64,000 bases of DNA from a virus: the IMG/VR virus record IMGVR_UViG_3300025009_000052; one strand, 5' to 3'. The notes under the pieces are model-generated. The model ran no database searches and had not been told where the DNA came from. It saw only the letters and a program-made list of their open reading frames with translations. Position numbers and translations under genes: made by a program. Shown one piece after another: positions 12,347-40,781 of this stretch; positions within the stretch are counted from its first letter, which is position 1, and every line of letters begins with the position of its first letter.

Positions 12347-13735
12347 TTAACTTAATTGACCAGAAATGTTTTCAAAAAGGACGTTTTTCCTTGGCTGATA
12401 GCCCGCGAGGCATTTGAAAGAAAAGTGCGCCTCGGGCAAGCTTAAATCGTGGAGAGCAAGTTTTAATCGTGAATATGGAGCTAATTGGTGAAAACCAAAA
12501 GTATTGGTTTGGAGCAAGAAACCAGTTACAGAACCTGGCTCTTTAAAGCCCAAATCTACGAAACTAGTTGCGCCTGATCCACTAGCTTTTACTCTACCGA
12601 TAAATTTAGCAGCAGCGGCAGTTCCACCATCAGCAGATCGGTATACGTTAAAATATTTACAACCGGTTACGGCAGCGATAGCTAAAGTAACTTTTTGGCC
12701 AGCAGTAGGAGATACTTGAGCAGAAGATGTAGAAACACTCTCGCCTCTTTCGTTACAAGCGGTAGCTTTATAGTAATAATCTCCAGCAGCCAAAATAGAA
12801 GCTGCATCGTTAGCTGCGGTAGGAGTTACTGTAGCAGGGGCAGCAGGTGAGCCGGCTCTACTTCTAGCAGGAGCGGTTTTACCAGAAAGAAATCTTGAAG
12901 GTTCTAAACTAATTGTACCGTTGGATGTCCATTGGGTTCTTAGGTTAGCGCCCATAGCTTCCTGAGCAGAACCAGCAAGCATGATTCTTTCTTTTGCGTG
13001 AGCAATTTTATTATAAGCAGAAAGAGAAATCGGGTCTAGCATCAATTTATCAGCAGAACCATGATTCATAGCACTTTTAACAGCTCCGTCCTCGATAAAC
13101 GATTCGGTCAAAGTACCGTTAACTGCGATAACTACTGTTTGGTTTGATCCGTATTCTGCAAACATAAGGTCTTGAGTGTTAGAAAGAGAATCTGAAAGTC
13201 TAACTTGCATATCGACGCCTTGCATTCCAGGTACGTCAGCGATTACAGCAGGGTTTCCATCGAAAACACCTGAGTTAGAAAAATCAGCTTGTCCTCTAAA
13301 ACCGTCAAATTCGATATCAGCAGATAGTTTTATAGCAGCGTCGTTTCCGGCTCTGGTTTCAGCTTTTTGGCCATCAAATGCGGCAACTAAATTAGCAGCA
13401 ACACTTACTCTACGAACTGTAGAATAATAAGCCATAGGTATGGTGATTCTTGAATAATTAGAAGTATCCTCTTCGCCAATTCCACCCTCATACTGAGCAG
13501 ATCCGCCGAAAATTCCGTAATCTAATTGACGGTTAAATTGTACCAAAGTACCTTTTGCGTCTTTAACTGAGAACATTTTTTGCAATTTAATTTGTTTGTC
13601 GTCAAAACAAACATTTTCCATAACTGGGGATAGATCTTCAATCTGAAGAGCCGATCCTTGTTGTAAAGAACTTGGTGCTGCGTTGTAACTACCAGCTTCC
13701 AAGGCTTTCATAAGGTCATTCAATTGGTTTACCAT
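12347..13735 (-). CDS. Major capsid protein (SPO1/Twort-like)
   Basis: LMKALEAG...GSALQIEDLS N-terminus, 462 aa, C-terminal Ig-like insertion, follows the scaffold. Confidence 0.9.
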   Translation of the reverse strand: MVNQLNDLMKALEAGSYNAAPSSLQQGSALQIEDLSPVMENVCFDDKQIKLQKMFSVKDAKGTLVQFNRQLDYGIFGGSAQYEGGIGEEDTSNYSRITIPMAYYSTVRRVSVAANLVAAFDGQKAETRAGNDAAIKLSADIEFDGFRGQADFSNSGVFDGNPAVIADVPGMQGVDMQVRLSDSLSNTQDLMFAEYGSNQTVVIAVNGTLTESFIEDGAVKSAMNHGSADKLMLDPISLSAYNKIAHAKERIMLAGSAQEAMGANLRTQWTSNGTISLEPSRFLSGKTAPARSRAGSPAAPATVTPTAANDAASILAAGDYYYKATACNERGESVSTSSAQVSPTAGQKVTLAIAAVTGCKYFNVYRSADGGTAAAAKFIGRVKASGSGATSFVDLGFKEPGSVTGFLLQTNTFGFHQLAPYSRLKLALHDLSLPEAHFSFKCLAGYQPRKNVLFENISGQLS

Positions 13736-13744
13736 GTAATCCTC

Positions 13745-14407
13745 CTATAAAAGATGTTTTATTAATTCAATTGATTGAGTGTTATTATAATAAGTATCAA
13801 TAGCTTCTCTGTCTTTCTTCTCTAACTTTTCAGATCTGATTTTTTCACAAAGAATGTTTGAAATTTCTTTCTGACTTAATTGACTTGCATCTTTTTTAGT
13901 AGGAGCTACGGTAGCTTCAGCTTCGGTCTTTTTGATGTATTCAATTTTAGTAATTGCTTTTCTTTGTGGAGCTTCTTTCTTAATAAATTTTGTAAAAGCT
14001 TCGGTCAGTTTTTCCAAATTTTTCTTAAGCTCAGTGTTTTCTTCTTTAAGAGACTCTATCTCAGCTTTGGCTAATTTGTCTTCTTTCTTTTCAATTTTAA
14101 CTTCCTTTACTTCTTCAGTTTTATTGATAGTGTCAGATCCAAATATAGTCTTTTTAATAGCTTGATAGTGTGCGTCTTGCTCAGCTTTGCTCATTGATTG
14201 GTAGAGTTTGTCCATTTCGGCAAAATCCTCTTCGTCATAATCAAATTCACTTTCTTGTTTAGCTACTTCTTCTGTTTTTTGAACTTTAACTTCTTCAGTT
14301 TTAGGTTCTTCTATTTTAGCCTCTTGTTCGGCTTTAGCTAAAGATTCAGCAAATTGAGTTTCTACCTCACTAATGAGAGCTGCCATTTCTTGTTCTGAAT
14401 ATTTCAC
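13745..14407 (-). CDS. Probable head scaffolding protein
   Basis: E/K-rich coiled coil directly upstream of the capsid gene; many LxKA/xxKT motifs. Confidence 0.7.
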   Translation of the reverse strand: MKYSEQEMAALISEVETQFAESLAKAEQEAKIEEPKTEEVKVQKTEEVAKQESEFDYDEEDFAEMDKLYQSMSKAEQDAHYQAIKKTIFGSDTINKTEEVKEVKIEKKEDKLAKAEIESLKEENTELKKNLEKLTEAFTKFIKKEAPQRKAITKIEYIKKTEAEATVAPTKKDASQLSQKEISNILCEKIRSEKLEKKDREAIDTYYNNTQSIELIKHLL

Positions 14408-14440
14408 GGGCGACTCCTTTGTTAAAAGTTAATGGGTAGA

Positions 14441-14827
14441 TTACATTCCTTTAGTTGGCCACTGAATATCGGCTTCAACTTCAGTAGCGGCGGCAACTTT
14501 GGCATCTGCTAATGTAGCATCTGTAGAAACATACATTTTAATACCAAGTTTTACGACTTCGGCATAAATTTTTGCCAAAACACCAGCATCAATTCCATTA
14601 TCATAAGCAAGAACTAACTTATGGGGTGCGAAAGCAATGAGGTCTTGGCCGAAGATATCTTTGCTCACATTATTGACAGCTTCGATTTGAATGTAGGCTT
14701 GATCTGTGTTAATTGTTAATTCTGGCCATGCATTAGCATCTTTTGATTCAACGATTGTCATGCCTCGAATTACCAACTTGTCTTTAAGATCTCTTGCCCA
14801 AGCATAAGCTTTAGCGGTACTTTTCAT
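14441..14827 (-). CDS. Probable head protein (decoration/minor capsid)
   Basis: First gene of the capsid operon; AGGAG RBS before MKSTAK. Confidence 0.5.
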   Translation of the reverse strand: MKSTAKAYAWARDLKDKLVIRGMTIVESKDANAWPELTINTDQAYIQIEAVNNVSKDIFGQDLIAFAPHKLVLAYDNGIDAGVLAKIYAEVVKLGIKMYVSTDATLADAKVAAATEVEADIQWPTKGM

Positions 14828-15066
14828 ACTTGACTCCTTTATAAAAAGTTGATTAATATACAAGAAATTGTATATTTGTTTACAATATATTACTGATTAC
14901 CATTTTTGTTAATAATTAAACAATTTCAAGTAGTTATAAGTAATAAATGAAATGAGACTAGTTGTGATTTCAATAAATTGCGACGTGAAAATAGGTAATG
15001 ACAATCTTTAATCTATGAAATGTCAAGAAATAGATGGGAAAATATATAAAATCACTAATATGATTA

Positions 15067-15249
15067 ATGGAAAGATCTAATGGGGGAAGTTCTGTGTTTG
15101 CTAAAAACATCGAAACCGGTAAAACAATAGAGTTTGAATCGGTCGCATATTGTTCTAGGGTTTTAAACATCAGGACTTCAGATATATATGGTTGTATTTC
15201 TGGTAGACAAAAGACGGCTAAAAAATATTCTTTTATAAAAAATATATAA
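15067..15249 (+). CDS. Stand-alone NUMOD1-like DNA-binding domain (homing endonuclease remnant)
   Basis: NIETGKTIEFESVAYCSRVLNI...IYGCISGRQKTAKKYSF. Confidence 0.6.
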   Translation: MERSNGGSSVFAKNIETGKTIEFESVAYCSRVLNIRTSDIYGCISGRQKTAKKYSFIKNI

Positions 15250-15262: not shown

Positions 15263-16417
15263 ATGGATACTTTATTAGGTACTTATTTGCATGGCATTGG
15301 GTCTACTACCGATTTGGATTCAAGTGGTGAAAGAGTTAAAATAGAAGGAATTGATATATCTTCAGCTACACAGGATGGAACGATAAACTTTGAGCATAAG
15401 TCCGAAGAGCCATCGCAGATTGTTGGGAAGATCCTTGAGGTTAAAAAAATATTGAAAAAAGACGATTGTGAAAATGAACACCATGAGTATTTTTGGAAAA
15501 AAGCCGGTGAAAGGCCCTATCTATATGTTGCAGGAGTATTGTTCGACAAGTTCAATCACCCCGGAGCTATCAGTATAGCAGCTATGTTAAAGTTCGATCA
15601 GTTAACTGATAAGAAAAATACCAAACATGTTGTTAATTTTAGTATTGAAGGTTCTAGACTAGATAAGAAAGGTATTTGGATAGAAAAATGTATAATGAGA
15701 AAAATAACTGTAACCACCGCTGCATGTAATAAAATGTGTATAGCGGAATTACTAGAGAAACCGTCAAAAACCAAACTTATATCGAAAGAGTCATTATTTG
15801 ACATTTTTAAGAAATGTGAGGAAGTGGAAAGTAATTTAAACAAATCCGACACTCAACCCAAATTTAAAAGTAAACTATCGTTTAAACTAAAGCCAACAAT
15901 TTCACCTAAAGAAAATTTTAAGCCACTAACCCCTATGTCTACCCCGGCAAAAGAGGGCAAACCTATAATACCTAAAAGAACAATATCCTCTCAATCAAAT
16001 AAAGAATGGAAGTTAGGAGACAGGATAGTTCCGTCAAAAACCACTAAACCAAAAACTGGTAAGGATATTTATAGTAATCCTAATACTTGGAAATCTGAAG
16101 GAAAAAAGAAAAAATTCTATATGTCTAATATTCAAAAGGCCTTAATAGCTAGCTGTAGTGACTCTGCCCCATCTAACTTAACAGGTATGTCGGCTCTAAC
16201 TAAAGAATGTTTCGGTAAAAAACAACTTGATAAAATTTTTAAAACACTGTCAGACAGTGCTTTTGAAAGGTTGGACAAAAAAGAAGATTTAGTTAAGTTT
16301 ATTTCGGAAAAGTTACCAAAACTTAATGAAAACGAGGTTTTAGCTATCGCTAAGGCTGTAGCCTATATTAAGGAAAAAAAGAACGAATTGAAATTATCCG
16401 AAATGATTAAGGAATAA
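15263..16417 (+). CDS. Prohead (maturation) protease with C-terminal extension
   Basis: GIGSTTDLDSSGE, INFEH, IVGKI, FSIEG (His/Ser of caudoviral prohead proteases). Confidence 0.82.
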   Translation: MDTLLGTYLHGIGSTTDLDSSGERVKIEGIDISSATQDGTINFEHKSEEPSQIVGKILEVKKILKKDDCENEHHEYFWKKAGERPYLYVAGVLFDKFNHPGAISIAAMLKFDQLTDKKNTKHVVNFSIEGSRLDKKGIWIEKCIMRKITVTTAACNKMCIAELLEKPSKTKLISKESLFDIFKKCEEVESNLNKSDTQPKFKSKLSFKLKPTISPKENFKPLTPMSTPAKEGKPIIPKRTISSQSNKEWKLGDRIVPSKTTKPKTGKDIYSNPNTWKSEGKKKKFYMSNIQKALIASCSDSAPSNLTGMSALTKECFGKKQLDKIFKTLSDSAFERLDKKEDLVKFISEKLPKLNENEVLAIAKAVAYIKEKKNELKLSEMIKE

Positions 16418-16419: not shown

Positions 16420-16821
16420 ATGGCTAAGGAAGGAAGGGATTCTAATCGAGTTGCTGCTATTTTAATTAGAGACTGTCTGGACAATATATTAATGGGCCAA
16501 AGGAACGATGGTAGTGGTTGGGCTAATCCTGGCGGTCATTTGAAAGTTGGCGAACAGTATTTTGAAGGAGCGCTAAGGGAACTTAAAGAAGAAACTGGGC
16601 TAGACGCTGTTGAGTTAAAACTAATTAAAATGCATAAATACGGGAAAATATTGGTTTATTTGTTTGAAGCTAAAGTTGGTATAGAACAAGATATAGACAC
16701 ATCTGGTGACCCGGATAAAGAATTTTCCACCCTAAAATACTGTGACCCTAACGATATTAAAGAAGATCTACACGTTCCTTTAGAAAGGAATGCTGTTATG
16801 CAATATTGGATGGAGAGTTAA
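16420..16821 (+). CDS. Nudix hydrolase
   Basis: Nudix box GGHLKVGEQYFEGALRELKEETGL. Confidence 0.93.
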   Translation: MAKEGRDSNRVAAILIRDCLDNILMGQRNDGSGWANPGGHLKVGEQYFEGALRELKEETGLDAVELKLIKMHKYGKILVYLFEAKVGIEQDIDTSGDPDKEFSTLKYCDPNDIKEDLHVPLERNAVMQYWMES

Positions 16822-25681: not shown

Positions 25682-25683
25682 TT

Positions 25684-28491: not shown

Positions 28492-28538
28492 CTATCTATT
28501 AAATCTTAATCTATAATCTATTGTGAGGATTTATTAAA

Positions 28539-31500
28539 ATGGATAAGTTACAGGATTTACTAGAAAAAATAGAAGAAGTAATAGAGCAAGATCTTCAGAA
28601 ACAACATATTTCCGATCTCTTCAAAGGTGGTAAAAAAGCTAATATCGGCGAAACCAGAACTTGGGATGGAAAAGACTATATCAAAACCCAAGATGGTTGG
28701 GACTATGTTGCTCAGGGGCATGAGCCAAAAACTAATGAGCAGCCTAAACAACCTCCAGAAGTTCAAAAACCAGTTTCAGATATTAAAACTCCTCATGAAG
28801 TAAAATCTCCAGAGCCTCAAGTATCAAAGCCCCAGGAAGAAACAGAACAAACGAAAGAAGTTGTTGAGTCACCAAGACAAGAAATTTCCGAAACCTCAGA
28901 AGAAAAACAAGAAGAATATGTAAACGCTCGTAAATCCAAGGTTTCTAACTTGGGTAAAGATATAAAAGGCTCAGCTAGACATAAAAGACAATATAGCTCT
29001 ATTAAAGATATGGGAACTGCCGAAATATCCGATATTACCGTTAAAAACCTATTGAAACAATTCCCTATCAATCTAATAGACGATGTAGCTAAGGACAATC
29101 CAATTATCCCCTATGTAGCCAACCAAATTTTAAATAGATTTCCTGCTAGTCCAAAACACGAAGTTCAAAAAGAAATGTATTTGGAAACTTTTGAATATGT
29201 TAGAAATAGAGTTCAAGAGCTGTCTAAACAAAAAGACTTATTATTTACCGACGTTATTTCAGCTATCCAAAAAGAAATTGTTGCTAAGATTAAAGAAAAC
29301 AGGGCTTCTGAAAACTATGTAAGAGGTTCCGACGACTTCTTAGTTCCCTATGTAAATAAAACCTTAAATTTTAGAAAAACAAAGGGCTCTGTTGGTCAAG
29401 ACGTTGAGGATTTAGTAAATGCTTTTGCTAGAACACTACCTGAATCCGATCAGGATGGGTTAAGTGTTGGTTATATGCTTAAGGAAACTAGACAAGCTGC
29501 TATGGCTGAATTTTATACCGAAGAGGGCGTAAGAAAAATAAAAGACTTGGTGGAAGGAAAGTCTTTAAGTAAAGTTTTTGAAATAGTCTCAGAAGGTAAA
29601 AAATCTAAAAAGTTTTCTGTAGCCGAGATCTATACTCAAGACGCTAAAAGAACTGGCCCAGATACTAAATTAACTACCGAAGAAGACCAAGCTAATTTTA
29701 TTATAAAATCCTGTGAAATGAAGGGTTTACAGTGGGGAAATAGTGTTACTGACGAAGAAAGAAAACACCATTTGAAAATGTCTTCCGAAGCCTTTAAGGA
29801 TTTGGCAGATATATTAGACTTACCCGAAAAAATGATTTCATTTAATGGTAGGTTAGGGTTAGCAATTGGAGCCAGAGGCCACGGAACTGCTTTAGCTCAT
29901 TATGAACCAAAAGAAATTGCTATTAATTTAACTAGGTCGAAAGGTGTCGGATCATTGGCTCATGAATGGGGCCATTTTTTAGACAATATTTTATCCAAAA
30001 CTCATGGTGTAAATGCTCACCCAGAAAATCAATTCTTATCCGAATCTGCTGTTTGGAATATGGGTGATAAATCTCCGGTTCAAGAATCTATGAAAGAATT
30101 GGTTAAATCAGATGCTTGGAAAAGCTTTAAAGACTCTACCCGTGATGCTCTTAATGATTTAGCTAAACACGGAATTAAGGAAAAGCCTAGCTATTGGATG
30201 TCACCTAAGGAATTATTCGCCAGAGCTTTTGAAGGATATATTAGTTATAAATTAAAATCCAAAGACAGAGAAAATACATATTTATCTGGTGGCAGCGAAG
30301 GTTTAATGTGGTGTACCAAGGAACAAAAAGAAAAATTGGCACCATATTTCGATAAATTTTTTGAAGAATTGAAAAAATCAGATCATATTAAGAAGGCTAT
30401 GGATTTAGAAAACGATTTGCAGAAAGGAAGTCTTCAAAGTAAAATGGGTAATCCCAAAAAACAATTAAGACCTCAAGAGACTAATACTATGATCAATTGG
30501 GTATCAGAGCAGCAACCTAGGGAAAATATCCCAGAAGCCACCAATAAAGCCAAACAGAGGTTTTTTCATAAGCTACATTCTCAAACAGAAGTAAAAAAAC
30601 ATCCTAAAACTGGGGAGAGAATGTTTTTAATGCATAGGGGTACTGAGACTGATTCGGACACACACAATACATCACTATCATCTTGGACGCCAAACTACAA
30701 TATAGCTAATGATTTTGCCGACAGTATTGACGACGATGGTACGAAAAGTACAGTTCATTCTGCTTGGATACCAGAAAGTGCTATTCATAATTACATACCG
30801 AATTCAATTGATAGAGATATTAAAGAATACGATGAGTTAATCCCGAGAGAGCAGGAGTACATCGTTAAGCCACATAATTTTTTACATGCTAATTGGCAAA
30901 AATTACCTAACAAAGAAGGACTTGATCGTAAGATAAACTGGAAACAGCGAATATATGGTAAAGGGGGTAGGCTGGCAGCCGGCGAAAATATAGAAAATGA
31001 TTTGACTAAATCTAAAATTAACGCAGATGAAGAAGGTGAAATAATTAAGAAAAATAAAGAAAAAGCTGAGGCCAAAAGAAAACACAAATTTAAAGCTGCT
31101 CAGTGGACGCACCCAAATGGACACCCAAGATGTATTATTTGTGGTGACGAAGAAAGGATTGATGGATATTGTAGTCCATCTTTAGATAAATCCCAAACTA
31201 AATGGCATAAAAGAAACGGTATTTTACAGAAAAGTTGGAGAAAAGCTATTGCAACAGGAGCCGCCCTATCAACAATGTTAGTGGGAGCCCACAATATGGG
31301 TCAAAACAAAGAACCTGGCAGGCAACCTTCTTCTGTTGATCAGTCTCAAATAAACCAAGTAAAAATTGCCCCAGACCATGGTTTAAAATCTGACATGTTA
31401 CATAATATTAAGAATAATCCTATTGTTGAAAACAATGTTTTACCTAAAGGTAGGTTTGGACAATATAGCCTGTCTCAAAACGCTATTAAAAGTGTTTTTA

Positions 31501-31781
31501 ATAAAAACCAAACATTAGGTGAAAGGTATGGCCATTTATTAAAACTTTCCCCCAATGAATTAGATCAACAACTAAAAAACGATCCTAATTTAGACCATCA
31601 ATTGGCAGATTCTCATTGGCATAATTTACAGAGTGAGTTTGGAAACAAACCTGACCATATAGCCCATGCTTGGTATCAAAATCCAGAGAATACCAGACAG
31701 GAAAGCCAACTTAAGGGAGGTGATTCTAATTTTAATAATCACTTCTATGTGTCCAAAATCATTAAGAATCTTAAAAAATAG
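28539..31781 (+). CDS. Large polyvalent protein: DdrB/LPD1 zincin + R-S-E ADP-ribosyltransferase + lysozyme-like domain
   Basis: LQWGN...LAIGARG...AHYEP...SLAHEWGHFLD...ELFARAFE; HRG...SSWT...EQEYIV; FGQYSL...AHAWYQ...YVSKI. Confidence 0.75.
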   Translation: MDKLQDLLEKIEEVIEQDLQKQHISDLFKGGKKANIGETRTWDGKDYIKTQDGWDYVAQGHEPKTNEQPKQPPEVQKPVSDIKTPHEVKSPEPQVSKPQEETEQTKEVVESPRQEISETSEEKQEEYVNARKSKVSNLGKDIKGSARHKRQYSSIKDMGTAEISDITVKNLLKQFPINLIDDVAKDNPIIPYVANQILNRFPASPKHEVQKEMYLETFEYVRNRVQELSKQKDLLFTDVISAIQKEIVAKIKENRASENYVRGSDDFLVPYVNKTLNFRKTKGSVGQDVEDLVNAFARTLPESDQDGLSVGYMLKETRQAAMAEFYTEEGVRKIKDLVEGKSLSKVFEIVSEGKKSKKFSVAEIYTQDAKRTGPDTKLTTEEDQANFIIKSCEMKGLQWGNSVTDEERKHHLKMSSEAFKDLADILDLPEKMISFNGRLGLAIGARGHGTALAHYEPKEIAINLTRSKGVGSLAHEWGHFLDNILSKTHGVNAHPENQFLSESAVWNMGDKSPVQESMKELVKSDAWKSFKDSTRDALNDLAKHGIKEKPSYWMSPKELFARAFEGYISYKLKSKDRENTYLSGGSEGLMWCTKEQKEKLAPYFDKFFEELKKSDHIKKAMDLENDLQKGSLQSKMGNPKKQLRPQETNTMINWVSEQQPRENIPEATNKAKQRFFHKLHSQTEVKKHPKTGERMFLMHRGTETDSDTHNTSLSSWTPNYNIANDFADSIDDDGTKSTVHSAWIPESAIHNYIPNSIDRDIKEYDELIPREQEYIVKPHNFLHANWQKLPNKEGLDRKINWKQRIYGKGGRLAAGENIENDLTKSKINADEEGEIIKKNKEKAEAKRKHKFKAAQWTHPNGHPRCIICGDEERIDGYCSPSLDKSQTKWHKRNGILQKSWRKAIATGAALSTMLVGAHNMGQNKEPGRQPSSVDQSQINQVKIAPDHGLKSDMLHNIKNNPIVENNVLPKGRFGQYSLSQNAIKSVFNKNQTLGERYGHLLKLSPNELDQQLKNDPNLDHQLADSHWHNLQSEFGNKPDHIAHAWYQNPENTRQESQLKGGDSNFNNHFYVSKIIKNLKK

Positions 31782-31816
31782 TTTGATTTGAATTAGCTTC
31801 TGTGGTAATATATAGT

Positions 31817-32299
31817 ATGGGATTTAAATATTTTTTAACCACCGCCTTATTATTAGTTACAATATGTACTTTTGGGGAAAACGATAACCCAAAACGAACC
31901 TACAGACAGATCTTAAAAAATAAGCCCAATATAGATAAGAAATATGCGACTAAATTAGCTAAACTTATTGATAGACATAGCATAAAACATAAGATACCAG
32001 CCCATATCTATACCGCCATATTAATGCAAGAAAGTGGGTATAAATTGGGCGCTAAAAGGTGTATTAAGAAGTGTACTGATTTTGGGATTAGCCAAATTAA
32101 CCATAGAACAGCGAAAAGCTACAACCTAGATAGGTCTAAATTACTGAAAGACTTAGACTATTCGATTTGGGCCGGTGCTATGGTGTTGGCAGATTTTAAA
32201 AGATACAAAAAAACTGAAAAGCGTTGGTGGTCAAGATATAATGCGTCAAGTAAACATAAAAGACTGGAGTATGAAAAACTAGTTAAAAGGTATTTTTAA
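31817..32299 (+). CDS. Lytic transglycosylase (SLT) with N-terminal signal peptide
   Basis: AILMQESGY (catalytic Glu), DFGISQIN, RYN; MGFKYFLTTALLLVTICTFG leader; own leaderless promoter. Confidence 0.88.
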   Translation: MGFKYFLTTALLLVTICTFGENDNPKRTYRQILKNKPNIDKKYATKLAKLIDRHSIKHKIPAHIYTAILMQESGYKLGAKRCIKKCTDFGISQINHRTAKSYNLDRSKLLKDLDYSIWAGAMVLADFKRYKKTEKRWWSRYNASSKHKRLEYEKLVKRYF

Positions 32300-32608: not shown

Positions 32609-33136
32609 ATGGATATTAAACCAGCAGATATAGAAAAAATTGACGTTTTAGGTGAACTAAATGATGAAAACGTAAAAATCATAAAAACCTTTGGTGGCTA
32701 TTTCCTAGCAGTTGGCAATAAAAAGAAAGGTCAAAAAAGCCCCGAAGTATTGGCCGCAGGTAGTCATCCAGCCTTAGTATCTCATCAATTATGTAAGGAG
32801 TTTGAATCTTTTAAACCAGCCTTGCAGAAGTCAGAGCATACAAATACTATTGTTGAGGAGGTTACCTCTAAGCTTGACCCTACTATTGTAAATAAAGGAT
32901 TTGAAGCTTTTATCTTATCTGAAAATAACAAAATTAACTTTATAGTTTCTAGGTTTAATTTGGATATTGTTAAGTACGAGGCTGAAATTAGCAATAACTG
33001 TTTATCTTTTTCTAAACATAGTAGTAACGATATCGCTAAGAATTATCCCGAATTACAAAAAAACTTAGCATCCATTATGAACGATAAGTGTACGGAATTA
33101 AACATAAATAAGCTGGATTTAATTAAAGGCAAATAA
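32609..33136 (+). CDS. Hypothetical late protein
   Basis: AATCTTTA and AAGGAG upstream; internal LQKS. Confidence 0.6.
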   Translation: MDIKPADIEKIDVLGELNDENVKIIKTFGGYFLAVGNKKKGQKSPEVLAAGSHPALVSHQLCKEFESFKPALQKSEHTNTIVEEVTSKLDPTIVNKGFEAFILSENNKINFIVSRFNLDIVKYEAEISNNCLSFSKHSSNDIAKNYPELQKNLASIMNDKCTELNINKLDLIKGK

Positions 33137-33137
33137 T

Positions 33138-33398
33138 ATGGCGGTTGATTTTAAAAAGATCTATGAACTTAGAGAGCAACTAAATGAGTTGCTAGAACAA
33201 AGACCTGAGATGAAATATTATCAGGAATTTATTGATAAAGAATTGGAAAAAGCCGGTGATAATCCACATAATAGGTGTGCGGTTCTAGAAAACCTTCTAA
33301 GAGATAATCAAAAAAAGCTAAGAGAGGCCTGGCAAGAATTACAACATGATTGTAAAAAACTTAAAAAATTAGCAGATAGACTAAAAGAAGATGAGTAA
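33138..33398 (+). CDS. Hypothetical coiled-coil protein
   Basis: In operon. Confidence 0.6.
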   Translation: MAVDFKKIYELREQLNELLEQRPEMKYYQEFIDKELEKAGDNPHNRCAVLENLLRDNQKKLREAWQELQHDCKKLKKLADRLKEDE

Positions 33399-34266
33399 GA
33401 TTAACGTACTTCCAATCGAAATACCAGATATCGGCTTCACTTTTGAGGCTCAAGAGCAGTTTGCTACAGACAAGGGAATTTTACTTGAGCATTGGGTAGC
33501 TATACCTTCTCCTATTGGTTTAAAAGATAGGGGTGACTATCGAAGATCTGGCGAACTAGACGTTGTTTCTGAAAACGGGTTTATCTATAAAAAAGTAGGT
33601 GAATTTAAGGGTACTATTGTTAGTAATAGTAAACACAATACCAACACAGACGGTGGAATTTACGATAATTCAACGGCTAGATTAGTATTGCCTAAATATT
33701 ATCAATGTCATATTAATGGCCCAGACAAAAAAGAAATATCTCTATTGCCTGGCGATCGTATTTATGCCAAAAATATAGAATTAAAAGTAGATAACTATCA
33801 AAGAGCTGAATATGGTGTTAAACATAATGACTATCTACAATTTCCAGCTAAATGTGTAAGTTACTTAATAGATTCTCAAAATATTGAGTACATATACAAT
33901 GTCGATTTCACGACCGACCAGTATGGTAATATTCAGTGGATATCTGGTAATCGAAATCCAGGTATTGATATTTCTACAGGAAAAGGTAGGGTTTATTCTA
34001 TTAGATATACATATTTAGCATATTGGTATGTTTCCCAACTAATAAACGAAATTAGAGTTACTAATGATGGTGTAAATCCAGTTAGGCTCCCTTATCAATG
34101 TATGATTCAAAGAGAGTATGTTTACCATAACGCAATTAGAAAGGCAACGGAAAATATCAATTCAACCAAAGAACAGCCGAAAAGTAGAACGCAAGTTAAA
34201 CCGGACGATTCTTTAGATCCTAATAAATATGATGTAAAGGTTGATATGGGGCAGTTTGAGGAATAA
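33391..34266 (+). CDS. Probable neck/head-closure protein
   Basis: PSP.G...G.IY, DRI, RVYSIRYTY...WYV motifs resemble SPO1/Twort-like neck proteins. Confidence 0.55.
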   Translation: MSKINVLPIEIPDIGFTFEAQEQFATDKGILLEHWVAIPSPIGLKDRGDYRRSGELDVVSENGFIYKKVGEFKGTIVSNSKHNTNTDGGIYDNSTARLVLPKYYQCHINGPDKKEISLLPGDRIYAKNIELKVDNYQRAEYGVKHNDYLQFPAKCVSYLIDSQNIEYIYNVDFTTDQYGNIQWISGNRNPGIDISTGKGRVYSIRYTYLAYWYVSQLINEIRVTNDGVNPVRLPYQCMIQREYVYHNAIRKATENINSTKEQPKSRTQVKPDDSLDPNKYDVKVDMGQFEE

Positions 34267-34309
34267 TACTAATCTTTAGAATAGTAAAAATAATGGAGTT
34301 AACATAACT

Positions 34310-34726
34310 ATGAAGCTAAAAAACAGAAGAAAAGCCAACAATAATTATGACCCATCTAGTGTAGATTCAAATAGTTACAACGATGCTGCTGGGGCTAGAA
34401 AAACTATAGAAGTCGGCCACCACCTAAAGCCTATTAAAACAGGGGCTACCACCTTTACTACTGACTGTTCTACAAAAACTAAAGTTGGGAAAGGCATTTC
34501 TCTAGCTATTTTTGGTGTAGCAGACGGAAGTGTAACTATTGGCGACTCAACTGTCGCTATATTAGCTACTGGGGTTACGGACGCCAATGGATTTGTAGGG
34601 ATTCCAGTAATGGCGGAACATTGGATATACCTTAACACCTACACTTATGACTATATTATTACAAGCTCTGCCGATATTAAAGTTTTTATAATTGAAGACG
34701 ATACTTATATAATAAATACACCATAA
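34310..34726 (+). CDS. Probable virion protein
   Basis: AATCTTTA upstream; beta-rich. Confidence 0.5.
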   Translation: MKLKNRRKANNNYDPSSVDSNSYNDAAGARKTIEVGHHLKPIKTGATTFTTDCSTKTKVGKGISLAIFGVADGSVTIGDSTVAILATGVTDANGFVGIPVMAEHWIYLNTYTYDYIITSSADIKVFIIEDDTYIINTP

Positions 34727-35619
34727 TGAAAGAAAAAGAAAGAAATCTAATTAAAAGACTCTTAGGAGAGGATATCCTAGACAAATTGGAGAAATCTGAA
34801 ATTTCTGGTGGTATTCTTAAGCTTAATACAAATACAGTTACCGACCCTAACGATATTAAAATAGCCTTACAAATCGTACCTAGATCTGTTTTAAGCTATC
34901 TGTTTATGAACTTAAAAGATAAACAAATAGGCGATATTATTGATTTGGACTTGCCATTTGCTGAAGCTAAGCTACATATTAATAAACTATCTCCTGATAA
35001 TTATAGTGGCGATTTAGTTAAAGAGGGTAAGAAAATAGCAGAATTTAAATATAGATCATTGCCATCTATTGGTTTGATCTTAATGTCCAGTTTGGAACTA
35101 TATGATACTGATCAGCTTAACAGATTGGGACCTGCCGACTATCAATCCGATAAGGCTGAAAGTTTACAAAATCTAATAGATGAAAGACTTAAGCTATACG
35201 ATTTGGTTCATAGTGTTGTTGATAAGAAGATTTCAGAAAGAGAAGCTATAAAAGATTTAATTCATCAAAGGATTACTTCTGAGTTATTTAGACCTCAAAT
35301 AACAATTGCTCCACAACCTGAAGAGCCAGAGCCTGATAAGAAAAGTAAGTTAAAACAATTCTTAGAAGATAGAGTAAATAGGGCTCCAGTAAAAGAAGAA
35401 TCTATTGAAATGGACAAGAAAGAAATTAAATGTCCTGATTGTGGTGGGATTTTATGTAAGGGCGATGATAAGATAAGTCCCTGTATTTGCTTTGGTGAAA
35501 ATATGGGTAAAGAGATAAAGGTAAAAAAAATAGAAAACGGTAGGGTAAAAATAAAATTCCCCAAAGATTTTGGTGCTGAAAATATTGAGATGTTACTTGA
35601 AGCTTTAAAAAATAAATAA
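34726..35619 (+). CDS. Hypothetical protein with C-terminal Zn ribbon
   Basis: CPDCGG...CIC; N-terminal LEKS. Confidence 0.6.
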   Translation: MKEKERNLIKRLLGEDILDKLEKSEISGGILKLNTNTVTDPNDIKIALQIVPRSVLSYLFMNLKDKQIGDIIDLDLPFAEAKLHINKLSPDNYSGDLVKEGKKIAEFKYRSLPSIGLILMSSLELYDTDQLNRLGPADYQSDKAESLQNLIDERLKLYDLVHSVVDKKISEREAIKDLIHQRITSELFRPQITIAPQPEEPEPDKKSKLKQFLEDRVNRAPVKEESIEMDKKEIKCPDCGGILCKGDDKISPCICFGENMGKEIKVKKIENGRVKIKFPKDFGAENIEMLLEALKNK

Positions 35620-35629
35620 GGATCGATAT

Positions 35630-37042
35630 ATGGATAAAATTTATGTTAGTATTAATGGTGATAATATCGGTTCTGAACTTGGCCAAGCTATTGCTTCTGA
35701 CGATCACGAAGGTCTGGGCAAATTATCCCAATCAATTAAAGATAACCATTCTGAAATAGACCAATGGGTTGAATCTAAACAAGGTCGAGTGATAGTGTCG
35801 TCTGGGGACGAATCAATATTTGAGATTCCAATTGAAGCTGCTCAAGAATTAGAAGGAATTCGTGATAGATATAAAGAGATGTCTGGCCATAGTTTAACTA
35901 TTGGCGTTGGTTCAACAATGAGCGAGTCTTCCAAGGCTTTAATCTACGGTAAGATGAATGGAAAGAACCAAATTGTTGAGTATTCACCAGAAGTAGATAA
36001 ATTTTTAGCAGAAAACAATGTAGATGAAGATTCTGAAATTCCAGAAGATGAAAATATTCAGGAAAATGCAGATTCCTCAATTGAGGACGACTCCGATGTT
36101 CCAGAAGAGTCAGAAGATAGTGATTTAGAAGGTATACCTGAGGAAGATAATATTCCAGCAAGCGAAGAAGTCTCTGAAGAAGTCTCTGAAGAAGATATGT
36201 CCGAAGGTGATACTGTTCCAGAAGATGAAGTTAAGGAAACTGGTTTTGACGAGGAATCTACGGAACCAGAAATTGACAATATTGATGAGTCCACAGAAGG
36301 CGAAGAAATGCCTGAAGAGGATGTGTCCGAGGAAGGTGAAGAAAATTCAGAGGAAAATTTAGAAGATATATCTGAAGAAGCTCCAGAATTATCCGAAGAT
36401 GACGAGAATTATTTCGATATAAATCCAGACGAAATAGAAGAATTAAAACCCGAACACGTTGCTAATGGTGACTTAACATATCAAGGCGATCAACAAGAAA
36501 ATTCAAAAGACGAAGAGGACTATGTTGGCCCACAAGATGAGGATGGTTTAGAGGGAGACTCTGAGGGTGAAGAGATGCCTGAAGAAAATTCAGAAGAAGG
36601 TGGCGATAGATATGATATGTTATCTAATATGATACATGGCCATTTATCTGACCAACAAGACCCTAATGAATCCGAAGAAATGTCAGAAGGCGAAGAAATA
36701 CCTGAAGATATGCAAGACGGTCAAGAAGATAATAGTTCTGAATTAAAACAAGATATTTTCAATGCATTGCAGGGTTTTAAGCAAAATAAGGCTATGTTAG
36801 AAGACGCTAAAGAAAATAATCCAGAATTATATCAATCTCTCATTACTATGCTTAGGTCTATGATTCAAATGGCCAAACAACTAAATGGTTATGATCCAGA
36901 AGAAGATATGCAAGATGCCGATGGTCGTAGTGAGATTGAAGAAAGTTTACCTCATGCTGGGGAGTTTCAAGATGATTCTGAAATGCCAGAAGATGCTTTA
37001 CAAAACCCAGATGACGTAAAAAAAAACCCCTTAAATCAATAA
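35630..37042 (+). CDS. mCpol-like palm domain + acidic disordered linker + helical C-terminal domain
   Basis: YVSINGDNIG...GRVIVSSGDE...LTIGVG.TMSES.KALIYGK.NGKNQI. Confidence 0.7.
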   Translation: MDKIYVSINGDNIGSELGQAIASDDHEGLGKLSQSIKDNHSEIDQWVESKQGRVIVSSGDESIFEIPIEAAQELEGIRDRYKEMSGHSLTIGVGSTMSESSKALIYGKMNGKNQIVEYSPEVDKFLAENNVDEDSEIPEDENIQENADSSIEDDSDVPEESEDSDLEGIPEEDNIPASEEVSEEVSEEDMSEGDTVPEDEVKETGFDEESTEPEIDNIDESTEGEEMPEEDVSEEGEENSEENLEDISEEAPELSEDDENYFDINPDEIEELKPEHVANGDLTYQGDQQENSKDEEDYVGPQDEDGLEGDSEGEEMPEENSEEGGDRYDMLSNMIHGHLSDQQDPNESEEMSEGEEIPEDMQDGQEDNSSELKQDIFNALQGFKQNKAMLEDAKENNPELYQSLITMLRSMIQMAKQLNGYDPEEDMQDADGRSEIEESLPHAGEFQDDSEMPEDALQNPDDVKKNPLNQ

Positions 37043-37332
37043 GTTCACTTCCAGACAATCCAACTAAACACATTCCTATACCACAATCTCCAGTAGGTGC
37101 TGAAAAAGACGGTAAAATGAAAGTGGTTGATGGTACAACGGGGCGTGAATCCTGGAGAGGCGTGAGGCGTGGAATTCTGCGTGATTTTGATTCTGATCCT
37201 ACCTCTAAAAACTACAATAAATCCCAAATGAAAAAAGCTCCTCACCATTCTGCCCACGAAGGTGGGAAGCGTAGAGGGTCGGTTCCTCATATGGGATATA
37301 GGGATACTAAAGAAGGGCCAGAGGAACAATAG
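37021..37332 (+). CDS. -1 frame extension of 35630..37042 (probable frameshift product)
   Basis: The -1 frame opens just after TGA 37012 at the A9 run and reads KKPLKSISSLPDNPTKHIP...GPEEQ; weak RBS for the internal ATG 37117. Confidence 0.6.
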   Translation, partial: KKPLKSISSLPDNPTKHIPIPQSPVGAEKDGKMKVVDGTTGRESWRGVRRGILRDFDSDPTSKNYNKSQMKKAPHHSAHEGGKRRGSVPHMGYRDTKEGPEEQ

Positions 37333-37335
37333 AAG

Positions 37336-38091
37336 ATGTCTAATTTAAAACTTGATATTGATATTGAATCTATTGTAAAAGACTTCAAAGAAGTTAAGAA
37401 ACAGGTTGAAGCTGAGTTGGTGCAGGGGGTACAAGCGTTGGCTTCGATGACAAACGCACGACTTTATGAGGTGTCAAGAGACGGTTTAAAATCCCTTAGA
37501 AAAAAATACCAAGATGCTATAGAATTTACCAACCCTGAGGCTAATCTATGGATAGTTTCACTAAAAGAAGAAGCTATGTTTATTGAGTCGGGGAGGAAAA
37601 GTGGATGGATGTCTGAATTACTTAATGGTAAATCTGCTAAAACAAGTAAAGATGGAAAAAAATATGCTATTATCCCATTCGAGATGTCTAAAAATCCATC
37701 GGAACAAACACCAAAAGCCCAGGACTTAACCAATCAAATCAAAGCTTTTTTAAAGCAGCAAGGTGTTAGTTATAAGAAAATAGAACATAATCAAGATGGT
37801 AGTCCTAGACTTGGATTACTCCATAAATTTGATATAGACTCTGCTAGGCCTAGTCCGATGGCTAAAGATCCGGCATTGAAGGGACTTTCTATTTATCAAC
37901 ATAAAATGAGTGATGGAAGTATTAAAAGACAACATATGGTTTTTAGAATTATACACGAATCTCACCAATCTCAGGGGAAATGGGTCCATCCTGGTCTAGA
38001 GGCGAAGAATTTTATGGATTCGGTGTTTTCATGGGCGTGTGAGCAGTGGGAACAAACCATCCTACCGTCTATCTTAAAAGACTACAAATAG
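37336..38091 (+). CDS. Virion morphogenesis/neck protein
   Basis: A.FIE.G...GKKYAIIPF...FR.......W.HPG...NFMD pattern of SPO1/Twort-like structural proteins. Confidence 0.6.
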   Translation: MSNLKLDIDIESIVKDFKEVKKQVEAELVQGVQALASMTNARLYEVSRDGLKSLRKKYQDAIEFTNPEANLWIVSLKEEAMFIESGRKSGWMSELLNGKSAKTSKDGKKYAIIPFEMSKNPSEQTPKAQDLTNQIKAFLKQQGVSYKKIEHNQDGSPRLGLLHKFDIDSARPSPMAKDPALKGLSIYQHKMSDGSIKRQHMVFRIIHESHQSQGKWVHPGLEAKNFMDSVFSWACEQWEQTILPSILKDYK

Positions 38092-38119
38092 CAATCTTTA
38101 ACAAAACAAAGGGATTAGA

Positions 38120-39118
38120 ATGTCTATTTTTGCCGGAGATCTTATCGTAAAAACAGCAATCGAACTTGCTATTGAGGACATGCGTAAAAATCCTTGGCTT
38201 ATTGAGGATATTTTCAGCTCATTAATAGAAAACCCATTTTTAAAAGAAAAATACGGATTAGCCGAAATCAATAGAGCCAAAGAATTTATTTTAAATAATA
38301 AAATACCGGTATATTTAAAAGGCCGTATAGATAAAGAGGAATTCCCTTGCATAACCCTATCTATTGGGTCTAGTGAAGAAATGGACTCTTTAGCTACTTT
38401 GGGTGATTTATCCGATGAAGTTGTTGATTTACTACCTAGCAATATTAACAAGTCCATTAGATTTATAGTTCCTCCGTTTAATATCGTTTCTTACGATAAA
38501 GACAATGGAATTGTTGAAGTACCTGAATCTATTGAAGAATATAGATATATTGGTGCGGGAATGATTTTAGTTGACCCAAATACTGGTGAGGGATTTACAG
38601 TACTAGATAAAGCAGGAACTAATGGATTACAAATAGCTGCCGGGTCTGATTTAAAAAGCAGTAAAATGGGAATTATTCCGCAATATCAACTATATAGGGC
38701 TAGAAGAGAAAGAATAATTTCCAAAGAATCCTATAACATTGGATGTCATGCTCATGGTGATCCCAGTTCTTTGATTTTTCTATATTCTGTCGTAAAATAC
38801 GGATTGTTGAGATATCGAGAGTCTTTATTGGAAAGAGAGAATTTTCAATTATCTTCAATATCTTGTACGGATATGGTTCCAAATGAAGCTTTTGGAGTAG
38901 AAAATGTATTTTCTAGATACATAGTGTTAAGAGGCCAAACAGAAGAGTCTTGGATTAAAGGGCCCAAGAGAATAATTGAGGCTGTTGATCTTTCTGAAAA
39001 TATTGGAATTAACGAAGTCGTTTTAGATAAGGGTATTAAGATATTAAGTCAAGATGCTCCAGAAGAATATAGTGGGGACGATCAAACTTGGATTACAATT
39101 GACGACGATGAGGAATAA
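38120..39118 (+). CDS. Probable tail completion/terminator protein
   Basis: EFPCITLSIG, YNIGCHAHGDP; position before the sheath. Confidence 0.55.
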   Translation: MSIFAGDLIVKTAIELAIEDMRKNPWLIEDIFSSLIENPFLKEKYGLAEINRAKEFILNNKIPVYLKGRIDKEEFPCITLSIGSSEEMDSLATLGDLSDEVVDLLPSNINKSIRFIVPPFNIVSYDKDNGIVEVPESIEEYRYIGAGMILVDPNTGEGFTVLDKAGTNGLQIAAGSDLKSSKMGIIPQYQLYRARRERIISKESYNIGCHAHGDPSSLIFLYSVVKYGLLRYRESLLERENFQLSSISCTDMVPNEAFGVENVFSRYIVLRGQTEESWIKGPKRIIEAVDLSENIGINEVVLDKGIKILSQDAPEEYSGDDQTWITIDDDEE

Positions 39119-39171
39119 TAATCTTTAATTTATATTTATTTACGAAAATAATAAGGTAACTGGTTGAATTT

Positions 39172-39453
39172 ATGGATAAAAAAACCTATACACCGTTAGA
39201 AGTCGCTTTAGAACTCAAAAAAAGCCTATATAAATCTGTTAAAAAAGCCCTAAATTCTAAGGAAGGCTATAAAGAAAAAACTAAAGATGTGGTAGCCGAT
39301 GTTCTAGATCCTGATTTTGTAGCGGAAGCCCCAGCTAGTGATGTTCCACCTTCCAAAGAAGGTGTTTTGTGGAAAAACAAAGGAATTGGTAAGCTTAAGA
39401 AGTTTAAAAACAATATAAAAATCAAGAAAAGTCAAAATAATAGTAATCTTTAG
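39172..39453 (+). CDS. Small putative internal head protein
   Basis: Dense LKKS/LYKS/VKKA/IKKS motifs; leader similar to the next gene. Confidence 0.55.
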   Translation: MDKKTYTPLEVALELKKSLYKSVKKALNSKEGYKEKTKDVVADVLDPDFVAEAPASDVPPSKEGVLWKNKGIGKLKKFKNNIKIKKSQNNSNL

Positions 39454-39479
39454 GAAGTTACAAATAACGAGGATAAAGT

Positions 39480-40781
39480 ATGGAAAATATTAACAAAAAG
39501 TATACAGCAGCAGAAGCGGCTATTAAGATTTTAGACCATGTTAAAAAAATGTATCAAAATAGTAACTTAAAAAAATCAAATACTGCTCATGAAATTGAAG
39601 CTGGATCGGAGCCCGTTACTCAAAATACTGAATGTCCCGAGCAATTAGCTGCTAGTAAATCACTTAAATCTGCTAAGAAAAAACATAATGATAGTGGAAA
39701 TACTGAATTAGATGGTGAGTCAGAAGACATTGATAATGAAGATGTTGAGTCAGAAGATGGTGAAGAGATTCCAGATCATGAGCAAGGCTTATCTCCTGAG
39801 GAAAAAGAAATTCATGACTCTACCGAGTCCGAAAGTGACGAAGAAGAATTAGAACAGCAAGCAGATGCGGAAGCTCACGAAAGAGACGAATATGACGACG
39901 ACGATATTGAAGAGGAAAGTGAGTCTCCAGAACAACAAGAGGGTGACGAGAACGTAGAAGAACATGAAAAATTAGAATCCGAAGTGGAAGACAATGAAAA
40001 AGATGAAAAAAAAGACGGCGAAAAAATAATTGATAAAGTAACTAAGGACAAAAAACCAGCTTTTATGAAAGCCGAAGTAGATAAAGCTTGTGGATTAAAG
40101 TCCCCTAAATTAGGTTCTTTTTTAAAAAAGAGGGAATTAAAGAAAGCTATAGTTGACGAGGGCAAGTCCGATGATAAAAAAAGAGAAGATAGAATAAAAA
40201 GAGGAAACGATAGAATAGTTGTTGGTTCTCAGAAAGTTTTTGGTAGAGATAAAGGTGTTCATAAGCCGTACCATGGAGAAGGATCTTCAAACGTAGGTGA
40301 AAAAACCAGATTTTCTAGGAAATATAAAGAAGTTCCTGCGATTAGACGTGCAACACAAGAATCTGCCAAGGATGAGGTTAAATTAAAAATAAATGAACAA
40401 AAACAAATGAAAAAACCCAACCTTCCTAAGTCAGAAGAGGCTAGTTTAGAAAAAGCTAAGCCAGCTAATAAGCCAAGTAAGGATATTAAACATATTTCTG
40501 AAAAAAGATTACAAGATAGGGATAAATTTAAAGAACAAAGAGAAGCTGGCAAAGACCCTATCCAACAAATGAGAATTGCCAATAATAAAAAGAAAGCTGC
40601 TAAAAAAGTAGTTATTGTAGATAAAGAAAGGGGTAATAAACAATCAAGAAAAGTGGTAGCCACTAAGAAAGTGGAAAAAATGTTAGGGATGAGTAATTTA
40701 CCTAGCAATTCTGGTAACCCCAAAGATGCTTATAAGAAACCAGAAACCCCAAAACCACCTAAAGTAAACGAAGGGTATTAA
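39480..40781 (+). CDS. Disordered acidic/basic putative internal head protein
   Basis: LKKS, FMKA, VDKA, LKKA, LPKS, LEKA punctuate low-complexity segments. Confidence 0.6.
   Translation: MENINKKYTAAEAAIKILDHVKKMYQNSNLKKSNTAHEIEAGSEPVTQNTECPEQLAASKSLKSAKKKHNDSGNTELDGESEDIDNEDVESEDGEEIPDHEQGLSPEEKEIHDSTESESDEEELEQQADAEAHERDEYDDDDIEEESESPEQQEGDENVEEHEKLESEVEDNEKDEKKDGEKIIDKVTKDKKPAFMKAEVDKACGLKSPKLGSFLKKRELKKAIVDEGKSDDKKREDRIKRGNDRIVVGSQKVFGRDKGVHKPYHGEGSSNVGEKTRFSRKYKEVPAIRRATQESAKDEVKLKINEQKQMKKPNLPKSEEASLEKAKPANKPSKDIKHISEKRLQDRDKFKEQREAGKDPIQQMRIANNKKKAAKKVVIVDKERGNKQSRKVVATKKVEKMLGMSNLPSNSGNPKDAYKKPETPKPPKVNEGY

Follow-up and report, generated by a model that had tools for sequence, protein, structure and literature searches.

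A lysine motif shared by head proteins and polyvalent cargo proteins of an Mx1-like phage is a candidate prohead-protease cut signal

On the basis of sequence patterns and structural models, we think it probable that the prohead protease encoded in IMG/VR virus record IMGVR_UViG_3300025009_000052 cuts both structural proteins of the head and packaged multidomain ("polyvalent") cargo proteins at a shared lysine motif. The stretch analysed here (the window) is the 64-kb head-to-tail region of this 155,481-bp record, an Mx1-like myophage. Its closest named relative is Myxococcus phage Mx1 (capsid protein 52% identical), with Herelleviridae capsids next at about 27%. Open reading frames (ORFs) are named by their start coordinate within the window (e.g. 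15263 for the protease, 24470 and 28539 for two cargo candidates). A first-pass annotation of the window had listed tetrapeptides consisting of hydrophobic-x-K followed by S, A or G in head proteins and several of their neighbors, and had taken them for sites at which packaged polyproteins are divided into free enzymes. Every listed tetrapeptide is present in the protein to which it was assigned. The observation proved real only after the motif had been sharpened and is in that sense partly confirmed, and the interpretation is partly supported.

Two forms of the motif were counted against shuffles that keep each protein's composition: a loose form, [LIMFV]xK[SAG], and a strict form, h-x-K-[SA]-[ED], where h is hydrophobic. 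The strict form arose from comparison of the window with Mx1, in which some sites are kept at about 30% identity and are then followed by Glu (in the scaffold, LAK/AE and LAK/SE; the slash marks the candidate cut). In this genome, the strict form occurs 11 times in the head block versus 4.3 expected (p=0.004; 2.6-fold), and 8 times elsewhere versus 14.0. When the residue before the hydrophobic position is restricted, as in [DNS]-h-x-K-[SAG], the block plus the portal holds 18 matches versus 8.2 (p=0.01) and the remaining proteins 31 versus 31.1. For the loose form, the head block (13.7-40.8 kb) contains 50 matches versus 39.1 expected (p=0.05), compared to 156 versus 164.5 in the remaining 155-kb genome, and only three proteins rise above chance: 28539 (10 versus 5.1, p=0.02), 39172 (4 versus 0.9, p=0.01) and 39480 (6 versus 2.3, p=0.014). 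The first-pass annotation had proposed scoring the loose form against the Lys-rich background and had named a lack of enrichment as grounds for abandoning the idea. The loose form, being marginal, comes close to that outcome, but the strict form is significantly enriched.

As a sequence pattern, the motif is unambiguous in the comparative data. We compared 55 related IMG/VR loci, whose capsid proteins are 63-77% identical, and counted the strict motif per gene family against shuffles. It is enriched in the families of the scaffold (318 observed versus 14.3 expected, z 85), the protease (69 versus 12.7, z 16.9), 32609 (30 versus 3.2, z 15.2), 34726 (20 versus 4.0, z 9.5), 28539 (23 versus 4.8, z 8.6), 24470 (16 versus 2.4, z 7.7) and the portal (8 versus 2.1, z 4.1), with z-scores that are inflated because sequences within families are related. 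Control families that are as closely related show no strict-motif signal. Across the same 55 loci, the motif is at or below expectation in TerL, GroEL, the capsid body, the 21333, 21724, 33391, 34310 and 35630 families, and mobile ORFs, and neck proteins likewise lack enrichment. Avoidance of the motif in the capsid body (52 versus 73.6) was considered as a further line of evidence and dropped; non-head proteins are similarly depleted.

The sequence preference around the motif is specific to Lys. An unbiased tally around all scaffold Lys residues recovers L or M at -2 (3-fold), S at +1 (2.4-fold, with A also favored) and E at +2 (2.3-fold). All 318 scaffold motifs are K-forms, with 0 R-forms, and 148 representative homologues of 24470 contain 232 K-forms versus 22 R-forms at a K:R residue ratio of 2.3. 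The motif Lys is retained even in Mx1, the genome of which is high in guanine and cytosine; candidate sites in this phage include LRK/A at aa 12-15 of the capsid protein, LAK/A and LAK/S in the scaffold and FAK/A at aa 240-243 of the protease. Motif positions are conserved at 30-50% identity.

Structural proteins carry the motif at conserved positions. The LMK/A that had been noticed at the capsid N-terminus is part of an L-x-K-A-L-E-A-G sequence that is invariant in 48 relatives and Mx1, and it aligns with LNK/ALSAG (aa 24-30) of the Herelleviridae phage CP-51. Scaffold-family motifs occupy conserved columns amid variable spacers, and both the scaffold sites and the protease-tail sites of the earlier list are conserved in relatives. 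The portal has an N-terminal extension ahead of its conserved core, and the IMK/S in this extension (aa 26-29) is kept as h-x-K-[SNAG] in most relatives. The other listed portal match, IKKA (aa 40-43), lies within the conserved core, is not conserved as a site and is a poor candidate.

The product of 15263 has the assemblin fold that is typical of prohead proteases, in agreement with its earlier assignment to this group. An AlphaFold2 model of its first 185 residues, made with 27 homologues (predicted local distance difference test score [pLDDT] 88.6), aligns to T4 gp21 (5jbl_B) at VIA Z 10.3, with a root-mean-square deviation of 2.5 Å over 123 residues. Another 36 assemblin entries, from herpesviruses, match at Z 6.2-9.4, and the next unrelated fold reaches 5.0. 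H45 and S127, the candidate catalytic residues and possible counterparts of gp21 H85 and S140, do not vary among 27 sequences. When the protease alignment was run as a profile against PDB sequences, nothing meaningful was returned, and Foldseek E-values were weak (1e-3), the clear answer coming from the VIA re-alignment only. The protease gene is on the opposite strand from the scaffold and capsid genes, at distances of about 860 nt (to the scaffold gene start at 14407) and about 1.5 kb, respectively, and its position is syntenic with Mx1 and 42 relatives. By tblastn, the protein matches the N-terminus of the Mx1 "prohead protease" (1239 aa).

The Lys-rich tail of the protease contains a copy of the capsid N-arm directly behind a motif site, IQK/ALIASCSDSAPSNL..SAL in the tail versus LMK/ALEAGSYNAAPSSL..SAL in the capsid protein. 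The pattern h-x-K-[AS]-L-x-AGS..AP..L.GGAAL is found in 33 of 40 relatives, as well as in Mx1 and CP-51, and this copy may mimic the capsid arm for docking or help to recognize substrates. Protease genes range from about 300 to 1239 aa among relatives (Mx1 L001:13002-16721; L029, L058 and L014), a 177-aa ORF being cut by a contig end. The variation lies in extensions beyond the N-arm copy, and these extensions have no Pfam matches.

In the cargo candidates, the motif falls between domains. For example, the AlphaFold model of 24470 (pLDDT 89.0) drops below 50 only at aa 24-28 and 192-197, segments that overlap or directly adjoin LHK/S and INK/SE. An S-adenosylmethionine (SAM) lyase-like enzyme had been predicted among the cargo, and two lines of evidence point to domain A of this protein: its closest structural match is T3 SAM lyase (8bb1_E, Z 10.3, 127 of 147 residues aligned; 7ock_J, Z 10.1; next match about 4.8), and P0005, a homologue of aa 39-174 (E 8e-22), reaches 36.1 bits on PF23780 (S-AdoMet_lyase), for which the cutoff is 28. 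Direct Pfam searches at E<=1 gave no match for either half of 24470. Domain B has the ADP-ribosyltransferase (ART) fold, with matches to MbcT (Z 6.7), a cyanophage A4 pre-ejectosome domain (6.3), and diphtheria toxin, NatT and PARPs (4-5). The A4 match covers residues 1419-1607 of the pre-ejectosome protein (9k3a_B), and the modeled likeness hints that similar ART-fold domains travel in ejection proteins of unrelated phages. Close orthologues of 24470 retain h-x-K/SE inside an otherwise variable linker, and domains A and B recur in other architectures of relatives, where they are again bounded by the motif.

This arrangement extends to distant homologues. A search of 1.84 billion representatives for homologues of 24470 yielded 503 clusters, the best 148 of which were analyzed (at most 50% identity, 131-2963 aa). 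Among these best 148 of 503, the ends of domains A and B have h-x-K-[SAGNT] within 40 flanking residues in 70-88% of cases, compared to 25-34% of random windows, and the strict motif is found near these boundaries in 27-48%, compared to a background of 7-9%. The junction logo shows L, I or F at -2, K at 0, S at +1 and E at +2. An earlier test based on the boundaries of high-scoring segment pairs had given only a two-fold effect (41% versus 21% within 5 residues) and is superseded by the domain-boundary test. Both the disordered segments of the model and the boundary enrichment in the 148 homologues uphold the earlier claim that the 24470 sites lie where domains meet.

The same claim holds for 28539, the modules of which are shuffled among relatives and joined by linkers that carry the motif. 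HEWGH together with LPD1 in this protein supports the zincin that had been predicted among the cargo; for the remaining parts of 28539, Pfam at E<=1 found no match. Two ARTs had been predicted in the window, one of which is the domain recognized by its modeled fold in 24470 and the other probably a domain of 28539 recognized by sequence, in which an R-S-E pattern (HRG..SWTP..ExE) is conserved in 28 copies. This ART-like domain is often tandemly repeated, and 20 of 20 distinct copies directly follow [DE][LI]xK/GS. The syntenic Mx1 protein matches ART-PolyVal at 2.8e-16. DUF4765, an Atlas lead for the ART-like domain (score 0.93, 157 shared features), was too weak to use. In relatives, the C-terminal domain of 28539 forms the end of many proteins of 350-500 aa, and a site directly precedes it. 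The seven matches that had been listed for 28539 are real, but the list was selective, as the protein contains ten matches to [LIMFV]xK[SAG]; one of them, LKKS at 611, is not conserved as a site.

Between the ART-like and C-terminal domains of 28539 lies a Cys/His mini-domain of about 65 residues (window 30954-31196; aa 806-886) with the core HKFKAA.WTHPNGHPRC..CG.EE....C, for which Pfam has no family. More than 30 polyvalent proteins share it at 60-82% identity, partnered with NUDIX, SAM lyase, mCpol, GNAT, DNA ligase, methyltransferase, S78_2 protease or portal domains, and it is present in 60 IMG/VR contigs of very different sizes. In most close homologues, the mini-domain is flanked by the motif on both sides.

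Smaller proteins of the head-tail block also carry sites. The LQK/SE between the halves of 32609 is conserved in 30 of 32 relatives. No sequence relatives of 39172 or 39480 were found in the search of related loci. In five of five complete relatives, however, the syntenic gene encodes a Lys-rich protein with h-x-K/[AS]-E/D/Q at aa 15-30, and this protein has no detectable homology to either ORF. An N-terminal helix ending in h-x-K-small is present in 24470, 28539, 34726, 39172 and 39480, although sites within the first 45 residues are not in significant excess genome-wide (8 of 29 block proteins versus 24 of 132 elsewhere).

We propose the following mechanism. The serine prohead protease 15263 would cut after Lys in [D/N/S]-hydrophobic-x-K, before S, A or G and often E or D. 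It would remove about 10 residues from the capsid protein, dice the scaffold at several sites, trim the N-terminal extension of the portal and cut its own tail, in which the capsid N-arm copy would probably serve as a docking or recognition element. The predicted cargo substrates are 24470, 28539, 32609, 39172 and 39480, with the motif in disordered linkers at domain junctions. These proteins would be co-assembled in the prohead, cut into single-domain enzymes and leave with the DNA at infection. We infer cleavage at the motif, the prohead protease as its agent, packaging and injection from the patterns described above. A broader version of this idea is possible, if somewhat short of probable: throughout a large and mostly uncultured clade of Mx1-like phages, and in Herelleviridae for the structural proteins, a Lys cut signal would punctuate polyvalent strings of anti-defense and takeover enzymes (SAM lyase, ART, NUDIX, GNAT, mCpol and other domains) that are loaded into the head and cut there, the protease entering by mimicry of the capsid N-arm and the mini-domain being released as a free internal peptide. 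In this version, phages could readily exchange domains, since every domain would bring its own cut sites along.

Several observations weigh against cleavage by the prohead protease, in addition to the inflation of the family z-scores. Over the window as a whole, the loose motif stays close to background, and it is at the shuffled background in the capsid protein, the protease, 24470, 25684 and 34726. The three matches in 28539 that were omitted from the earlier list fall within domains defined by homology: the zincin region holds IIKS 388 and LVKS 521, and the C-terminal domain holds LPKG 968. The P1' residue is variable (S, A, G, N, T or H, and F or V in the 34726 family). The standing of 34726 as a substrate is ambiguous: its relatives conserve h-x-K-x-E, but most of them have F, V or T at P1'. 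The family of 25684, which had been counted among the substrates, shows no enrichment in its 80 members (strict motif, 40 versus 40 expected; loose motif, 241 versus 311), and we therefore dropped it from the list; its LRKS is not conserved as a site. The lytic transglycosylase ORF 31802 contains 0 loose sites versus 1.1 expected, and 35630 contains none, its family likewise being unenriched. Part of the signal could represent conserved ends of mobile domains, such as DLxK-GSLQ, rather than a protease site. Finally, only 19 of 51 copies of the mini-domain from other viral contigs have the motif on a given side, so that flanking of this domain appears to be specific to the present lineage rather than general.

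Some of these observations would be expected under other explanations. One is that the motif is a docking motif or a linker or domain-cap element that is not cleaved, which targets proteins to the scaffold, the capsid interior or the protease and moves with shuffled domains. The protease-tail motif, as part of the longer N-arm copy, does look like a binding element, DLxK-GSLQ could be just the conserved start of the ART-like domain, and 34726 keeps its motif with bulky P1' residues. We nevertheless consider this explanation unlikely, given the many motifs per scaffold in otherwise unconserved spacers, the location of sites in disordered segments, the strict Lys followed by a small residue that is typical of protease subsites, and the parallel to systems in which such motifs are proven cut sites. 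Alternatively, the motif could be a cleavage signal for another peptidase, either a host protease or the zincin (MPTase) that is found in polyvalent proteins, 28539 among them, and that could act in cis or in trans. The HEWGH and LPD1 of 28539 and the autoproteolysis by MPTase domains that was proposed for polyvalent proteins of the P1 DdrB-like type (PMC5512222) are in its favor. However, the motif is strongest in the scaffold, capsid N-terminus, portal and protease tail, which are classic prohead-protease substrates, and it is also found in the scaffold, capsid protein and protease of CP-51. Moreover, any HExxH is present in only 40 of the 148 motif-bearing representatives (27%), which argues against the need for a zincin in cis. 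We regard involvement of another peptidase as distinctly unlikely. A last explanation, a chance or composition artifact of Lys-rich, helix-prone proteins from which tetrapeptides were picked by eye, gains from the background level of the loose motif in most of the listed proteins, the omission of in-domain matches and the insignificant enrichment of N-terminal sites. Shuffles that keep composition still leave the strict motif enriched in the block and depleted elsewhere, positions are conserved at low identity, the 148 diverse homologues show boundary enrichment, and Arg versions are absent from the scaffold. An artifact is thus highly improbable, having been largely refuted by the family counts, the contrast within the genome, the boundary test and the Lys specificity. 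A signal for the prohead protease is the most economical reading of the motif.

This reading places the phage beside well-studied maturation systems. The T4 prohead protease cuts at L/I-x-E. More generally, T4, phiKZ and SPN3US have Glu-ending motifs in capsid, portal and ejection proteins and in the protease itself, and SPN3US gp245 cuts all of these, including itself, at A-x-E (PMC10052503). Common to the systems of T4 gp21, phiKZ gp175, SPN3US gp245 and the phage described here are a protease of the assemblin fold and one short motif in the capsid protein, scaffold or core, portal, internal or ejection proteins, and protease. In the three known systems propeptides are removed inside the prohead (PMC10052503), whereas the present one is known at the level of sequence. 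The motifs also differ, with P1 Lys, a small P1' and an acidic P2' here compared to a cut after Glu there. In addition, nearly all cuts in T4, phiKZ and SPN3US remove N-terminal propeptides, while here the motif lies between successive enzyme domains, an arrangement that would imply true dissection of a polyprotein.

The structural part of the proposed system is shared with Herelleviridae, judging from the capsid protein, scaffold, portal and protease of CP-51. This phage likewise has an N-terminal h-x-K-A-L-x-A-G in its capsid protein and an N-arm copy in its protease tail (VEK/ALSAGYETNP..), 13 h-x-K-[SAG] matches in a 273-aa scaffold, and two sites at the portal N-terminus, LNKSM and IMKSE; unlike in the window phage, its P2' is not acidic. 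Reportedly, Cps of phage A511 is cleaved at a Lys-Ser bond, with which this sharing is consistent, and HK97 gp5 is said to be cleaved between Lys103 and Ser104.

The cargo candidates resemble the polyvalent proteins described by Iyer, Burroughs, Anand, de Souza and Aravind in 2017, whose processing was attributed to their own MPTase and other peptidase domains (PMC5512222). Shared features are the zincin MPTase, LPD1, ART, NUDIX, GNAT, SAM lyase and mCpol domains, location among late virion genes and extensive domain shuffling. In the window, 24470 and 28539 each combine at least two unrelated effector domains, 28539 has LPD1 and HEWGH, and both genes belong to the late-gene region, where they are flanked by head genes and the tail sheath gene and share their orientation. 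Unlike in that proposal, the junction motif is common to the cargo proteins, the capsid protein and the scaffold, and most motif-bearing relatives have no zincin. A further parallel is provided by the P1 Dar system and by T4 Alt and the T4 internal proteins, head-packaged anti-restriction and host-takeover proteins that are injected against defenses; they include an ART, T4 Alt, and the MPTase-bearing P1 DdrB (PMC5512222). Packaging in the phage described here would be analogous. Those systems consist of single proteins with at most one maturation cut, compared to several enzymes per chain with repeated motifs here.

Other genes of the window are placed in Table 1. At the position of 24470, 25684 and 28539, Mx1 encodes a 1479-aa GNAT, ART-PolyVal and NUDIX protein and a 619-aa kinase-like protein. 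The Nudix domain type of the window is found fused in relatives, as the N-terminal NUDIX of P0009, P0012 and P0021. Pfam at E<=1 gave no match for 25684, which has 80 homologues (40-47% identity, 900-1600 aa) on large phage contigs, mostly without Pfam domains; a few longer homologues carry a PI3/PI4-kinase-like domain, as does the syntenic Mx1 "kinase". The predicted lysozyme-like enzyme exists as an SLT domain, but in the separate ORF 31802 rather than in a polyprotein; this ORF has a weak PHROG match to "internal virion protein with endolysin domain". A predicted GNAT-like cargo domain was not found in the window, the sole GNAT/Mom match being in the mobile-looking ORF 10573. Among the virion genes, 35630-37042 encodes a protein whose N-terminal 118 residues form an mCpol (minimal CRISPR polymerase) domain (Pfam 7.2e-16), which in relatives also occurs as a fused part of polyvalent proteins (P0021 and P0030).

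Insertions are also evident in the window. TerL (1158 aa) has a LAGLIDADG homing-endonuclease segment inserted at aa 446-629, which suggests an intein, and Mx1 TerL aligns to it as three separated pieces. The paralogous ORFs 10573-12192 (-) and 22621-24489 (+) have an N-terminal helix-turn-helix and belong to a "homing/HNH endonuclease" family (PHROG 3339/559), with an additional Mom/GNAT-like domain in 10573. They are probably mobile elements, given that they break up the head module and that the syntenic region of Mx1 lacks any equivalent. A gene for a GIY-YIG/HNH-type homing endonuclease (43707-44675, +) lies between the tail sheath and tube genes.

Table 1. Genes of the window, mapped by tblastn against the whole Mx1 genome and by PHROG and Pfam scans, with their domains and candidate cut sites (nt, window coordinates; single numbers are gene names by start coordinate)
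Feature	Position (nt)	Strand	Remarks
Portal N-terminus	2-574	-	tblastn to Mx1 portal; gene continues beyond window edge
TerL with suggested intein	1632-5108	-	
GroEL	5613-7376		
Major capsid protein	12347-13735	-	PHROG 752 at 1.9e-46
Capsid candidate maturation site LMK/A	13703-13714	-	aa 8-11
Scaffolding protein	13745-14407	-	homologous to Mx1 gene upstream of capsid gene
Scaffold strict site LAK/AE	14327-14341		
Scaffold strict site MSK/AE	14180-14194		
Scaffold strict site LAK/AE	14060-14074		
Protease	15263-16417	+	catalytic domain 15263-15787 (aa 1-175); Lys-rich tail 15836-16417
Protease-tail site LNK/SD	15836-15850	+	
Capsid N-arm copy behind IQK/A	16130-16207	+	protease tail, aa 290-315
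Stand-alone Nudix protein	16420-16821	+	matches Nudix part of Mx1 1479-aa protein
Conserved genes	21333, 21724		
Three large proteins	24470-31781	+	24470, 25684, 28539
24470	24470-25681	+	two-enzyme cargo candidate; N-terminal helix aa 2-26
24470 site LHK/S	24536-24547		
24470 domain A			SAM-lyase fold, aa 29-175
24470 linker site INK/SE	25031-25045		
24470 domain B	25100-25567		ART fold, aa 211-366
25684	25684-28491	+	conserved 935-aa protein; not a motif-bearing polyprotein
28539	28539-31781	+	polyvalent protein; module boundaries from homologues
28539 site LFK/G	28617-28628		between leader and conserved N-terminal region
28539 zincin HEWGH and LPD1			aa 368-614; Pfam LPD1 6.5e-14 (52 bits, cutoff 27); PHROG 616
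28539 junction cluster IKK/A and LQK/G	30369-30428		
28539 R-S-E ART-like domain			aa 630-815
28539 site LTK/S	31002-31013		follows ART-like domain
28539 Cys/His mini-domain			aa 826-880
28539 sites LDK/S and LQK/S	31182-31235		follow mini-domain
28539 conserved C-terminal domain			aa 896-1080
SLT lytic transglycosylase	31802-32299	+	Pfam SLT at 4e-07
Conserved virion-module genes	32609-39118		
32609	32609-33136	+	two-domain small protein
32609 site LQK/SE	32822-32836		between halves
34726	34726-35619	+	conserved protein, Cys-rich C-terminal part
34726 site LEK/SE	34786-34800		aa 21-25
Lys-rich ORFs 39172 and 39480	39172-40781	+	93 and 433 aa; directly upstream of sheath module
39172/39480 site LKK/S	39567-39578		
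39172/39480 site FMK/AE	40062-40076		
39172/39480 site LPK/SE	40422-40436		
Sheath	41086		
Tube	44764		

Self-cleavage by their own peptidase domains is the only published proposal for the processing of polyvalent effectors. If cleavage by a prohead protease is correct, the cargo of uncultured phages would be predictable from sequence as motif-punctuated proteins of the head-tail block, including where each mature enzyme starts and ends, and the rapid shuffling of domains in polyvalent proteins would be explained. A Lys-specific branch would also be added beside the known Glu-specific prohead proteases. Mx1 is cultured, and its capsid protein, scaffold, portal and giant protease share the motif, so that mass spectrometry of virions would offer a direct test.

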